Positions 44,605 through 48,352 of a DNA stretch of 64,000 nt are shown one piece after another. The stretch is from NCBI GenBank assembly GCA_964016885.1, contig OZ024747.1, positions 21,142,001-21,206,000 of the forward strand. The letters are read 5' to 3'. This stretch comes from Eledone cirrhosa (taxonomy: Eukaryota). The notes beneath the pieces are model-generated. The model was not told where the DNA came from. It saw only the letters and a program-made list of their open reading frames with translations, and did not search any database. Both the position numbers and the translations under genes were made by a program. The number at the start of each line of letters is the position of its first letter. The stretch's first letter is position 1.

Positions 44605-45100
44605 AATACATTAAAAGAGAAAGCTTTAAGCGATACTCTGACCAACTCCATCTCACTCAACAAACATTAGGATATACCTAAGTATAATCCCAATTTAGTG
44701 TTTGGGGTGCTAACTATACAATATTCCGTGGATAGCTGGTTGTATTATTTTACATGAGACATAATTAAATAAATCTCTCTTTCCTTCCATACGATTGTTT
44801 CGTTATAAGATTTCTACAATTTGGGATAAATAATGTCCAGGTTATGTAGAAACTTGTATATAATCCATAGATATACACACAAGCGGGCCCTTATAACTCA
44901 TCAGTGGATGCCCATGCAATATCGATATTAATAATTAGTGATGGTCTCCGTCAGTTCTAGAAGGACTGCTAAATTTGAAAAGCCAGTAGTCCTTCAAAAA
45001 GAAAATTCACGTTGTCCCCAAAAAGGAAAGGGGAGGTCATCGTAAAATATAAAATAATATACACGCTGTTCATTGAAGCCTGTTAGGTATTTTAACCATA
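44605..45100 (-). mobile_element. pLTR-like element family W with large-stem-II hammerhead
   Basis: Diverged homologue of 48014-48352; flanked by (TA)n. Confidence 0.75.
44786..44908 (-). ncRNA. Type I hammerhead with branched stem II
   Basis: TCCA-CTGATGA-GTTATAAG...CTTATAAC-GAAA-CAATCG-TA-TGGA. Confidence 0.8.
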
Positions 45101-45250
45101 TTTTATATATAATATATATATAATATATATATATATATAGATACATACAAGCCTAGTGAGAAAGACAGTAACTTGCATGTACATATATATATAACAGATC
45201 TACTCTCAGATCTTACTTATGTTATTGACCTATATTATTGTACAAACATT

Positions 45251-45440
45251 GGCGGTGGATTGGCAGTATCGGTAGAGGGTTGGACGCCATGCTTTCTAGC
45301 ATAGTTACGTCCCTTTACAATCTGAGTTCAAATCCCGCCGAGGTTAACTTTGCCTTTCATCCTTACGGGGTCGATAAAATAAAGTACCAGTAATGCACTG
45401 GTTAATTGCTGGCCTTGTGCCTAAAGTAGAAACAATTATT
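45251..45440 (+). mobile_element. Full-length Meta-type tRNA SINE with TSD
   Basis: tRNA-like head, GAGTTCAAATCCC B box, GCCTTTCATCCTTACGGGGTCGATAAA central domain; ATTATTGTACAAACA duplicated at 45234-45248 and 45435-45449. Confidence 0.9.
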
Positions 45441-45954
45441 GTACAAACACACATATGTGGATACTTTTGTCTAGACAATTACTTACCTTTAAATTATTGT
45501 ATTATATATATATATGTATATATATATATATATATATATGTATATATATAATGAAGGAAGTATGGTAAGGAACCAGATGGACCATAACACACCAGAGTAC
45601 TCAATACTTAGGGTAGTAGAGTGGGTAATAGGAAAATGAGCAGCGATTCTTTGCTTAAACTTAATACATATATGCATATATATATATATATATATATAAA
45701 TATATATATATATATTCATAACTCACTCAACAGTATTAAAAATAGTTTGTTTATCGTGGATGGTTGATATAGCTTAAATTAATGGAAAGAAGTGTCAGTG
45801 ACACTTTTGTGTAATGGTAGCATGGCTGTGAGATTGAGTCCCACGAGTGAAGCTGTCCACTTTTACTATCCAGGGGTTTATACGCATAACTTTTTCCTAA
45901 ACAAAAACGTGCATTGAAGCCGTTAACTATACATTAACATTAATACAATATCTT

Positions 45955-46857
45955 TATAGATATATTAATGTTAATTCAAACCACCCCCAAAACATCACTG
46001 ATAACCTAGTAAAAAGCGTCTCTATTAGAATATCTGGCCTCTCCGCCAACAAAGATATTTTTAACGCATCTGCCTCCTACTACAATGACGCCCTCGCCCG
46101 CAGCGGATTTAAAGAAAAGATAACCTACCTAGAAACCACCGCAATATTGCAGAGGAATAGACATAGGCAGATTAGCTGGTACAACCCTCCCTTCAATAGA
46201 GAGGTCTCTACACCGATAGCTAGGATTTTCTTCACTTTGCTGAAATTACACTTCCCCATACAACATAGGTACCACACCATCTTTAATAAGAACACAATAA
46301 GACTCTCCTACTCCACCACACCTAACCTAGCTAGTAATATAGCCAACCACAATTCTAAAAAATTAAATAAGCCAACCACCTCCGAACCCAATCCCCGGAC
46401 TGGGGCTCTGTGTAATTGCCTAAATAAGGAAGCATGCCCACTTGAAAACAAATGCCTCACAAATGATATCGTATACAAATGCGATGTCATCTCAGGCACC
46501 GATGATTGCAAAAAAACTTACATCGGCATGACCTCCAACAACTTTAAGACCCGTTGGTATGCCCATACCCACTCCTTCAGAAGACCGGACAAATCAAACC
46601 AGACAACACTCGCCTCCTATGTTTGGGACCTCAACAGGAACTCCACCCCCTTCACGCTTAAATGGAAAATACTCCAGAAAGCGCACTCTTACAACGGAGG
46701 ACACAAGGGCTGCGACCTTTGTATCTCAGAGAGCTACGAAATTTTATTCGCCAAGGGCCCGCTACTGAACAAACTCTCTGAACACTGCCCAAACTGCATG
46801 CACAAGTACTTTGCAACTTTCAAATACTTTAAGCCAGTGTTAAAGCCCGATGGCTAA
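45955..46857 (+). CDS. 5'-truncated PLE ORF (RT thumb + GIY-YIG endonuclease), Nematis-like
   Basis: Frame is open upstream of the listed start ([12 protein letters not shown]...ALARSG); WYNPPF, CNC..CPL, IVYKC...[17 protein letters not shown] motifs; clade label from recall. Confidence 0.88.
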
Positions 46858-48013
46858 AAACGACCTCCTCCTATTGGCCCCTATACCTCCTTCCCACCCT
46901 ACCCCCACCCCTCCTCAACCTGAAATACGGCCACTATGGTTATATGAGTACCTCTTACCTATCTGCATTTTCTGCCTGTAGAGCTGTTTTTATGTGCCTG
47001 TGTATATGCGTATATTTATTGAGTACTTATTTATTTGTATGTGTATATATATTTGTGTGTATGTGTGTATATGTATGTGTATGTATATGTATGTGTATGT
47101 ATATGTATGTGTACATATATATATATATATATATGTGTATGTATATATATATATGTGTATATGTGTATATATATATATATATATGTATGTGTGTGTATGT
47201 GTGTGTGTGTGTATGTGTGTGTATATATATATATATATATATATATATGTGTGTGTGTGTGTGTGTGTATTTGTGTGTATGTGTTTGTGTGGTTCTCTCT
47301 CTGTGTGTGTATTTATTTATTTATTTATTTATTATTTATATATATGTGTGTGTGTATATATGTGTGTGTGTGTGTATGTATATATATATATATATATATA
47401 TATATGTGTATGTATGTGTGTGTGTGTATATGTCTATATATATATATATATATATGTATATGTGTATGTGTATATGTATATATATATATATATATATATA
47501 TATGTGTGTGTATATATATGTGTGTGTATATGTATATATATATATATATATATATATATATATATATATATGTGTGTATATGTATATATATATATATATA
47601 TATATATATATATATATATATATATATATATATATATATGTATATATGTGTGTATATATGTATGTGTACGTGTGTATATGTGTGTATATATGTGTGTGTA
47701 TATATTTGTGTGTATATATGTGTGTATATGTGTATATATATATGTTTATGTATGTGTGTATGTGTGTATATATATATATATATATATATGTATATATATA
47801 TATATATATATATATATATATATATATATATATATATGTGTGTTTATATATATATATATTTATATATATATATATATATATTTATTTATTTATGTATACG
47901 TGTTTGTATGTGGGTACGTATGTGTATGTATATTTGTGTGTATATATATATATATGTATGTGTATATATATAGGTATATATATATATATATATATATATA
48001 TATATATATATAT

Positions 48014-48352
48014 AAATACAATATCGGAGAAAGCTTTTTAGCGATACTCCGGCCAAATTCCAACTCACTCAACAAACATTAGGAAATATGTGATTATATT
48101 CCCAATTATGTGTTCGGGGTGCTAACTAAAAGTATTGCGGGGAAAATTGGCTGTATTATTTCATATGAGACATATCTAATATATCTCTTCCCAGACGGAC
48201 GTCTCATTTCATTATAGGATTCCTACAATTTGGGTGAAATTATACCAATTTATGTAGGAGCTTGTATACCATCAATAGATATATATTCAAGTGGGCTCCT
48301 ATAATTCATCAGTGGGTGCCCCAATAATACTAATATTGATAATGTAACCAAC
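48014..48352 (-). mobile_element. Family W element inserted in a TA/TG tract
   Basis: Homologous to 44605-44940. Confidence 0.78.
48190..48316 (-). ncRNA. Type I hammerhead with branched stem II
   Basis: CCCA-CTGATGA-ATTATAGG...CCTATAAT-GAAA-TGAGACGTCCG-TC-TGGG. Confidence 0.8.

Follow-up and report, generated by a model that had tools for sequence, protein, structure and literature searches.

Type I hammerhead ribozymes occur in the pLTRs of Penelope-like elements (PLEs), near the 3' end of the element, with a 4-bp stem I, a helix II longer than the canonical one and a 2-bp stem III with a palindromic loop (Cervera & de la Pena 2014, PMC4209133). They have been described as minimal and weak. 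Published tests show weak cleavage for PLE hammerheads and none for eight of nine Xenopus retrozymes; in the anole PLE (PAc), cleavage is dispensable in vitro and the RT begins downstream of the hammerhead. In the Hydra clade, which targets (TA)n, stem II and its loop comprise about 10-24 nt, and the longest stem II in the same file, 53 nt including an unbranched loop of 35 nt, belongs to a spike-moss PLE-X motif flagged as non-canonical (Craig et al. 2021, PMC8557442 File S2).

Non-LTR retrozymes are non-coding, low-GC tandem units, each containing a single type I hammerhead. They are dispersed through genomes as monomers and dimers, and have been proposed to be non-autonomous PLE derivatives (Cervera & de la Pena 2020, PMC7229834; Li et al. 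2026, bioRxiv 10.64898/2026.07.22.740005). Two further systems resemble the motifs described below. In the hammerheads of Perreault et al. (2011, PMC3088659), stem II is predicted to pair over 4-6 bp with the region of stem I and so to keep the two stems together, and such pseudoknots are a known activating contact. The discontinuous Clec2 hammerhead, as covered in part of a review (PMC6765202), tolerates an inserted segment several hundred nucleotides long in a single-copy mammalian 3' UTR.

The window analysed here, a stretch of 64 kb, contains two hammerheads, copies A and B, that share with the PLE hammerheads the type I topology, the stem I and stem III lengths and the 3' location, and with the Hydra clade the (TA)n target, but have a branched stem II of 95-96 nt. 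This motif is a new structural variant within the known Penelope-type hammerheads. Our main reading, to which we give a probability of about 0.5, is that these are type I hammerheads of a non-coding retroelement that forms tandems and has a high copy number, probably a non-autonomous PLE, and that their predicted 95-nt junction stem II probably braces the ribozyme through a pseudoknot.

Two type I hammerheads in the window

Both motifs lie on the minus strand where the preliminary description placed them, A at 44786..44908 and B at 48190..48316, and both carry a complete type I hammerhead core. This core comprises CUGANGA, GAAA, A15.1-U16.1 and an NUH cleavage triplet, which is GUA in A and GUC in B. 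Stems I, II and III surround the core, stem I being open, with 4 bp in stem I, 9 bp in the base of stem II and 2 bp in stem III. Copy A reads TCCA-CTGATGA-(96 nt)-GAAACAATCGTA-TGGA, with stem I at 44905-44908/44786-44789, CTGATGA at 44898-44904 and GAAA at 44798-44801; copy B reads CCCA-CTGATGA-(95 nt)-GAAATGAGACGTCCGTC-TGGG, with stem I at 48313-48316/48190-48193 and its core at 48306-48312. From the hammerhead consensus, cleavage is predicted between 44790 and 44789 in A and between 48194 and 48193 in B. The helices named earlier (stem I, stem II base and the inner helices) are all present in both copies. When the 64 kb were scanned for the core, three matches were obtained, namely A, B and one with only 4 bp in stem II and no stem III. 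The repeat shared by A and B is longer than the ribozyme, with 76% identity over 334 nt.

The element carrying the hammerheads

Copy A belongs to a 5'-truncated element of subfamily A (44601..45098, minus strand) between (TA)n tracts, the full unit being 767-771 nt; its 3' tail of about 185 nt (44601..44785, minus strand) contains TTGAG at 44656-44660 and has a fixed end in (TA)n. Copy B belongs to a 5'-truncated element of subfamily B (48014..48354, minus strand), also between (TA)n tracts, with a full unit of 706-707 nt. Natural tandem copies were found for both, with 92% identity over 541 nt to copy A (L043) and 98% over 365 nt to copy B (L002). The window copies themselves are single and truncated, and belong to two different subfamilies. 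The 3.4 kb between them is outside the element and contains (TA)n and an opposite-strand Penelope-like fragment. We rejected the idea that the two copies are pLTRs around the GIY-YIG ORF at 45901-46857, because this ORF is on the opposite strand, the copies are of different subfamilies and (TA)n lies in between.

Pattern searches of the genome gave 414 forward matches versus 0 for the reversed control, and 2,014 versus 0 for a second pattern. The non-coding element is present in about 2,800 copies or more, in at least seven subfamilies plus outgroups, and the longest stop-free stretches in the two monomers tested are 76 and 58 codons. For the tree-based analyses we used 128 copies, chosen by patterns demanding an intact core. 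Among the loci holding them, 11 show direct tandem copies, with periods of 697-1009 nt, compared with typically about 300 nt for animal retrozymes (51-972, Li et al.). The (TA)n tract is reached 150-230 nt past the cut site in 111/128 copies, while the next unit is entered in 12/128, and one head-to-head inverted pair (L183) was found. The copies combine a 3' end fixed in (TA)n with truncation at varying 5' points, and include partial tandems and an inverted 5' copy. Tandem units of 0.7-1.0 kb, together with the fixed 3' end and 5' truncation, fit a non-autonomous PLE, and we consider the A/B copies very probably to be such an element, that is, a non-LTR retrozyme. As in retrozymes, the GC content is low and monomers and dimers are dispersed in the genome. 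Their hammerhead does not have the loop 1/loop 2 architecture of retrozymes. The preliminary description had not mentioned a high-copy, non-autonomous retroelement origin.

Stem II domain and predicted pseudoknot

The large multibranched stem II of about 95 nt that had been proposed was borne out as a predicted three-way junction. Folded alone, each domain forms a base stem of 9 bp that opens, through a short single-stranded junction, into two arms, at -24.4 (A) and -24.1 kcal/mol (B). In A (96 nt, 44802..44897, minus strand) the junction strand GCCC is at 44885-44888, arm IIa at 44852-44884 and arm IIb at 44812-44851; in B (95 nt, 48211..48305, minus strand), whose junction also contains GCCC, the arms are at 48261-48291 (IIa) and 48221-48259 (IIb). 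Helices I (4 bp) and II (9 bp) fit the PLE type, for which 4-5 bp and about 7-8 bp with a small loop 2 are usual, but here loop 2 has become a two-arm domain of about 77 nt. The fold is more stable than that of shuffled sequences in 11/11 sampled family copies (z -2.75 to -8.4), was recovered unaided by RNAalifold from the family alignment, and is the fold of 117/128 single copies. The first stem II pair is G-C in A1-A3, A-U in B and U-U in A4/A7. PLE hammerheads typically have G10.1-C11.1 and an unpaired base between 9 and 10.1; here there is no such base in A1 and B, and an extra one occurs only in subfamily A5. In the decayed outgroup family F, RNAalifold with RIBOSUM gave the base stem and the first arm without recovering the second, and with default settings the hammerhead fold was not obtained.

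Just 5' of stem I, both copies carry GGGC (44910..44913 in A and 48318..48321 in B, minus strand), the predicted partner of the junction GCCC. The counts of internal changes per column are 0,0,0,0 for GCCC and 0,1,0,1 for GGGC, compared with 4-6 in each of the four columns just upstream. Both motifs are retained in outgroup families F and G. The GGGC/GCCC pairs are near-invariant, with no covariation seen, and a 4-bp match has a chance of about 7%. The predicted pseudoknot between the two motifs would also set the A/B hammerheads apart from those of PLEs. In the pseudoknots of Perreault et al. a terminal loop or tail provides the stem II strand; here it would be supplied by a three-way junction lying 9 bp off the core, within a repetitive animal type I motif. 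Unlike the Clec2 insertion, as far as the review covers it, the extra domain of A/B is a compact conserved fold in the stem II of a mobile element.

We propose that the junction, 9 bp up stem II, would expose GCCC, that GCCC would pair with the GGGC flanking the 4-bp stem I, and that this pairing would substitute for the loop 1-loop 2 contact. That the pseudoknot braces the ribozyme in this way has, in our estimate, slightly less than an even chance. A folding role is suggested by the ability of the junction GCCC to pair beside stem I, and by the equally long but differently shaped stems II of other families. The same families also serve the strongest competing explanation, in which a genuine ribozyme tolerates an enlarged loop 2, and the extra domain is under selection only for folding on itself clear of the core, without any specific contact. 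The stems II of those families (54-62 and 89-116 nt) have unrelated sequence and a rod shape, short-stem PLE hammerheads are also abundant in this genome (5,061 versus 404 in the control, about 4,600 above it for one pattern), and the sequence of arm IIa is free to change while remaining paired. Against this, the junction strand and the 5' GGGC hardly change while their neighbours vary, the domain length is held at 92-97 nt across subfamilies, and the first arm persists with both motifs in the outgroup, which makes an expansion without specific contact rather unlikely.

Coding Penelope-like elements in the same genome

Two full-length coding elements, L122 and L123, contain DKT and CxCX5C motifs, and L123 also RWR, matching features of the Hydra clade. 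Their only hammerhead core has a stem II of 90-102 nt; stems II of this length in coding Hydra-clade Penelope elements are mostly unbranched. These elements have in common with A/B the (TA)n target and a long tail of about 190 nt. Tail length and TTGAG of A/B resemble the Hydra-type families D and E; TTGAG is common to family D, 54-61 nt before the end. Against a link of this kind, family C has it 91 nt from the end. From these sequence features, we find it rather likely that a Hydra-clade element supplies the helper protein. The RT/GIY-YIG protein of this element would copy the freed unit, which may have become circular, copying would begin about 185 nt beyond the cut, and insertion would occur at (TA)n.

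Among the A/B copies examined, none proved to be contiguous with a coding element. Sense ORFs near L024 and L228 were rejected as the autonomous parent, as they are part of a different element, which has a short hammerhead of its own and lies beyond a (TA)n junction, and the ORF beside outgroup copy L095 is likewise set apart by a TA junction. Sense matches were also observed 1.1-3.5 kb upstream in L026, L030 and L130.

The preliminary description suggested that the stem II domain may be a protein-binding or regulatory module. On such a reading, the branch would be a binding site for the helper RT/endonuclease, or for a host protein, by which the non-coding unit captures the enzyme. Conservation of arm IIb and of parts of the loops in sequence, and the long stems II of coding Hydra-type elements, are consistent with such a site. 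However, a profile of A/B found no sequence or shape in common with the coding-family stems II, and matches only the other non-coding families F and G. The feature that A/B do share with coding families sits in the 3' tail, and the RT of the anole PLE starts downstream of the hammerhead. We therefore regard protein binding as improbable, and retain bracing of the ribozyme as the preferred role.

Stem III and cleavage

Each window copy has its stem III palindrome spoiled by one private base change. In A, stem III/loop 3 (ACAATCGT, 44791..44798, minus strand) differs from the family palindrome ACGATCGT by a G-to-A change at a CpG, G being found at this site in 24/25 subfamily copies. In B, stem III (ATGAGACGTCCGT, 48195..48207, minus strand) carries a C-to-T change at a CpG, with C in 30/31 subfamily copies; the corresponding family sequence, ACG(A)GACGTCCGT, makes a 12-bp palindrome that leaves one A bulged. 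In 115/128 copies the palindrome is one of four, which differ in their middles. The self-duplex of stem III has a predicted energy of -10 to -15 kcal/mol, and no monomer hairpin is predicted. A palindromic stem III (positions 15.2-16.2 and loop 3) kept in four variants is a sign of a hammerhead that acts as a dimer, as in PLE hammerheads (PMC4209133), and on this model intact copies are likely to cleave as dimers. A read-through transcript of tandem units would then be cleaved once the palindromic stems III of two hammerheads have paired. The palindrome was absent from the preliminary description.

A third explanation holds that the motif no longer cuts, and that core and structure are retained as a folded signal for retrotransposition. 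The weak or absent cleavage in several published experiments on PLEs and retrozymes and its dispensability in vitro in PAc would agree with this, as would the U-U (A4/A7) and A-U (B) pairs at the first position of stem II. Nevertheless, the core is intact in nearly all of 68 BLAST-collected, near-identical copies (CTGATGA in 65/68, GAAA in 67/68), the cleavage base is A, C or U (as constrained by the search pattern), compensating changes preserve the palindrome, and U-U at this position is known to be tolerated, according to part of PMC3088659. Loss of cleavage is therefore very improbable compared with an active, dimer-forming ribozyme.

Selection on the branch helices

The preliminary description read the differences between the two copies as covariation. 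The two show little of it, with only four double changes (one in the 4-bp stem I, two in the base stem and one in an inner helix), and the second inner helix, CTTG/CAAG, is present but identical in both and hence offers no covariation evidence. The count of double-changed pairs did not exceed that of shuffles (272/500 shuffles). For the larger family set that had been proposed as a check, the outcome depends on the method: in pairwise substitution simulations between subfamilies the inserted arms are not significant (P 0.06-0.83), while the 128-copy tree set gives moderate support for selection on the branch helices (Fisher P 0.007-0.03). Inserted-arm pairs show break/keep ratios of 11/20 on subfamily branches versus 29/20 on terminal branches (Fisher P 0.033), and firm helices 4/10 versus 18/6 (Fisher P 0.007). 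Three double-compensated events occur in the inserted arms, all on internal (subfamily) branches and none in single genomic copies. Arm IIb has one compensated change on internal branches, and its TAA, ATT and other loop columns are unchanged. A null based on random placement on the tree proved biased and was set aside, since terminal branches were also in deficit (29 versus 53).

Paired changes arising from DNA-level repair of inverted repeats would suit the many arms that are AT-rich near-palindromes and a reverse strand that folds at least equally well (consensus energy -18.1 versus -14.4 for the ribozyme strand), but are hardly credible given the excess of G-U over A-C cells on the ribozyme strand (36 versus 19), the confinement of double changes to subfamily branches, and compensated strands lying up to 120 nt apart.

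With its thousands of natural copies, seven or more subfamilies and outgroups, and a large stem II domain under selection, the A/B clade allows a direct test of whether a pseudoknot carried by the junction can make a dimer-type hammerhead active again.

Detection of long-stem hammerheads

As anticipated in the preliminary description, standard models miss the motif: even with E values as high as 10 allowed, Rfam gives no hammerhead match to copy A or B (196-nt stretches), and a published search for the core permitted a spacer of only 7-17 nt. By pattern search, long-stem motifs in the genome number about 3,800 or more above background, and those with a stem II of 108-137 nt are near background (116 versus 69). 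Tentatively, and with more doubt than for the main reading, there may be a class of Penelope-type hammerheads with stems II of 55-116 nt that is invisible to Rfam and to short-spacer descriptors. In A/B, the junction pseudoknot would make a dimer ribozyme efficient; this would be a new architecture among natural hammerheads, amplified to thousands of copies, and some PLEs called hammerhead-less or 'half core' may carry oversized motifs. Among the matches listed of a metagenome pattern scan (at least 120 loci), none had both stem I and stem II of at least 3 bp. An 18-nt motif of the published Naiad 3' end gave two unrelated one-mismatch matches, and palindrome terms gave none in the supplement containing that end. 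In the whole-window Rfam scan, the 150 of 445 matches listed are to microsatellites, and a 39-bp minisatellite swamped the direct-repeat search of the window.

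Hammerhead motifs with a branched stem II

The two hammerhead motifs lie on the minus strand at 44786-44908 (copy A) and 48190-48316 (copy B), each with the core CTGATGA plus GAAA; in both, stem I has 4 bp, stem III has 2 bp, and the triplet is GUH. The preliminary description had placed them there with a large multibranched stem II of ~95 nt; core, GAAA, and stem I were confirmed in the window sequence, and the stem II domains, 96 nt in A and 95 nt in B, when folded in isolation each comprise a base stem of 9 bp, a short junction strand, and two arms (IIa and IIb). Standard models do miss the motif, as had been expected, since Rfam gave no hammerhead match at either copy with E up to 10. 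Copies A and B share 76% identity over 334 nt, extending ~185 nt beyond the predicted cut site. By sequence and structure, this feature is a real type I, dimer-type hammerhead, with a predicted cut, in a non-autonomous Penelope-like element (PLE).

The element carrying the motif

The genome is 3.0 Gb, AT-rich, and rich in microsatellites. First-look candidates from two DNA searches numbered 1,993 and 3,182, with 98-100% and 96-100% identity among the 40 scored in each. A pattern for the A/B types, the subfamilies typified by the two copies, gave 414 forward matches (control 0) and 659 reverse-strand matches, the latter inflated by double listing, and a pattern from the 5' half alone gave 2,014 matches to further subfamilies (control 0), which together indicate ~2,800 or more element copies. 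The collected loci provided 128 distinct copies whose core is intact, the selecting patterns requiring that core and half of arm IIb. In 111 of these, (TA)n is reached 150-230 nt past the cut site, and 12 run on into the next unit. The 5' ends are variable, direct tandems repeat every 697-1009 nt, one locus (L204) is a mixed tandem of two subfamilies, another arrangement, a head-to-head pair, occurs at one locus, and the longest stop-free stretch is at most 76 codons in the two monomers tested. Tandems, variable 5' ends, (TA)n ends, and no long frame are marks of non-autonomous PLEs, or non-LTR retrozymes, as described in bioRxiv 10.64898/2026.07.22.740005, PMC7229834, and PMC8557442. In units of subfamily A7 at two loci (L200 and L206; 998-1009 nt), the non-ribozyme part seems, by eye, to be duplicated internally.

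Sequence comparison places copies A and B in truncated single elements at 45098-44601 and 48354-48014, both on the minus strand. A GIY-YIG ORF between them (45901-46857) was rejected as part of their element, being a separate insertion on the opposite strand; it is a 5'-truncated Hydra-type PLE fragment comprising the RT end, a CxCX5C linker, and GIY-YIG.

Selection on the inserted branch

The covariation claimed in the preliminary description is slight between the two copies, with only four doubly changed pairs and CTTG/CAAG constant, but gains moderate support when the 128 copies are placed on a tree. For 20 copies picked by hand, RNAalifold found the junction without guidance, pairing held in 92.6% of 757 cells, and the covariation score exceeded 500 of 500 shuffles, a kind of test that kinship of sequences inflates. 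Doubly changed pairs, of which these copies have 7, were no more numerous than in shuffles (272 of 500), pairwise simulations gave no significance for the inserted arms (P 0.06-0.83), and the consensus energy was lower on the reverse strand than on the ribozyme strand.

On the tree, the inserted arms show three double compensations, all on branches holding at least 3 copies, and none on terminal branches. A random-placement null was discarded as biased, its deficit appearing on terminal branches also, and branch classes were therefore compared with each other. Break/keep counts, with terminal branches second, were 11/20 vs 29/20 for all inserted pairs (P 0.033), 2/6 vs 28/7 for the base stem (P 0.006), and 4/10 vs 18/6 for outer arm IIa plus IIb (P 0.007), the outer-IIa subset having been picked after register shifts at the arm tip were noticed. 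The base stem and two arms form as a single-copy fold in 117 of the 128 copies, a set pattern-selected for the core and half of arm IIb. The three-way junction is under selection, and the support for selection on the inserted branch is moderate and real.

A predicted pseudoknot

The junction strand GCCC shows 0, 0, 0, and 0 internal-branch changes and the motif GGGC just 5' of stem I 0, 1, 0, and 1, against 4-6 in the four columns upstream. Both are retained in the older outgroup families F and G, found with the A/B profile at E 2e-11 to 5e-2, and they are capable of 4-6 pairs. These pairs show no covariation and a 4-bp match has a ~7% chance, so that a stem I/II pseudoknot is a prediction, and we give it slightly under even odds as the role of the branch. 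In other hammerheads such pseudoknots boost rates by orders of magnitude (PMC3088659).

Dimer signature at stem III

A stem III palindrome of one of four kinds occurs in 115 of the 128 copies: ACGATCGT (57), ACG(A)GACGTCCGT (35), ACAATTGT (18), and ACGGCCGT (5), the outer bases being fixed by the search pattern and the middles free. In the three palindromes tested, the self-duplex has an energy of -10 to -15 kcal/mol, and none formed a monomer hairpin. The palindrome identifies the dimer-acting type of PLE hammerhead described in PMC4209133. Within the hammerhead, copies A and B each differ from most of their subfamily at a single position, which is a CpG in the palindrome; in copy A this change takes the self-duplex from -10.0 to +0.3 kcal/mol, making it a poor test substrate.

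Comparison with known hammerheads

The element class and the ribozyme class are already known. What appears to be new is the architecture of stem II and its scale, together with the predicted pseudoknot. For Hydra hammerheads, one of them from an octopus, File S2 of PMC8557442 gives stem II plus loop as ~10-24 nt, compared to 95-96 nt in A/B, and the longest of any clade has 53 nt; the core search of that study admitted only a 7-17 nt spacer. Our literature search turned up no Penelope-type or retrozyme hammerhead whose stem II is branched and ~95 nt long; sources outside it may contain longer variants. The consensus 3' ends of Naiad_Ovul and Naiad_Obim, the former called a 'half core', carry CTGATGA and ~70 partly self-complementary bases without GAAA (PMC8557442), and could be a cut-off long stem II; in the present genome, the motif did not turn up as a family. 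Points that by analogy would speak against cleavage are the weak activity of PLE hammerheads (PMC4209133), the inactivity of 8 of 9 Xenopus retrozymes (bioRxiv 10.64898/2026.07.22.740005), and the dispensable cleavage of an anole PLE (PMC11167929).

Long-stem relatives and other features

With A/B excluded, pattern matches numbered 5,061 vs 404 in the control for stems II of 8-30 nt, 513 vs 91 for 50-77 nt, 625 vs 43 for 80-107 nt, and 116 vs 69 for 108-137 nt. At loci L141-L160 of this genome (G000) there are older hammerhead families whose stems II measure 54-62 nt and whose palindromes are of the ACGCGCGT type. Several long-stem families have coding capacity. Two full-length Hydra-type elements, L122:1651-4833 (stem II 90 nt) and L123:1737-5990 (97-102 nt), have hammerheads 3,058 and ~4,120 nt apart, respectively, around RT plus GIY-YIG, and the long-stem motif, whose stem II folds mostly as a rod, is the sole hammerhead core within their pLTR repeats. 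Both contain DKT and CxCX5C, and L123 the RWR motif, features that mark the Hydra clade, whose target is (TA)n (PMC8557442). Among the collected loci, we found none in which an A/B copy is contiguous with a coding element, and a helper element is therefore inferred. The 3' tail is 184-206 nt long in A/B and in two other hammerhead-bearing families, D and E; TTGAG precedes the long 3' end by 54-61 nt in families A, B, D, E, and H, and in family C it lies 91 nt from the end. This possible RT recognition motif occurs on the minus strand at 44656-44660 and 48068-48072, and at loci L081, L085, and L061.

A third long-stem-II hammerhead is located at 60894-61027 (plus strand), with a CTGAAGA core, a 115-nt rod (-40.5 kcal/mol), a ACGATCGT palindrome, and a 206-nt tail; it is possibly the 3' part of a Hydra-type ORF at 56253-57089, behind expanded microsatellites. 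An open frame of 787 aa at 21651-24014 (plus strand) combines RT and GIY-YIG-like parts of a different PLE clade and has mirrored repeats on either side (21531-21667 and 24011-24147). A 39-bp minisatellite array of over 100 copies spans 4576-9052, and a short dispersed repeat, presumably a SINE, lies at ~45230-45440 (minus strand) and was also seen by eye in other, unrelated loci, L078 and L124 among them.
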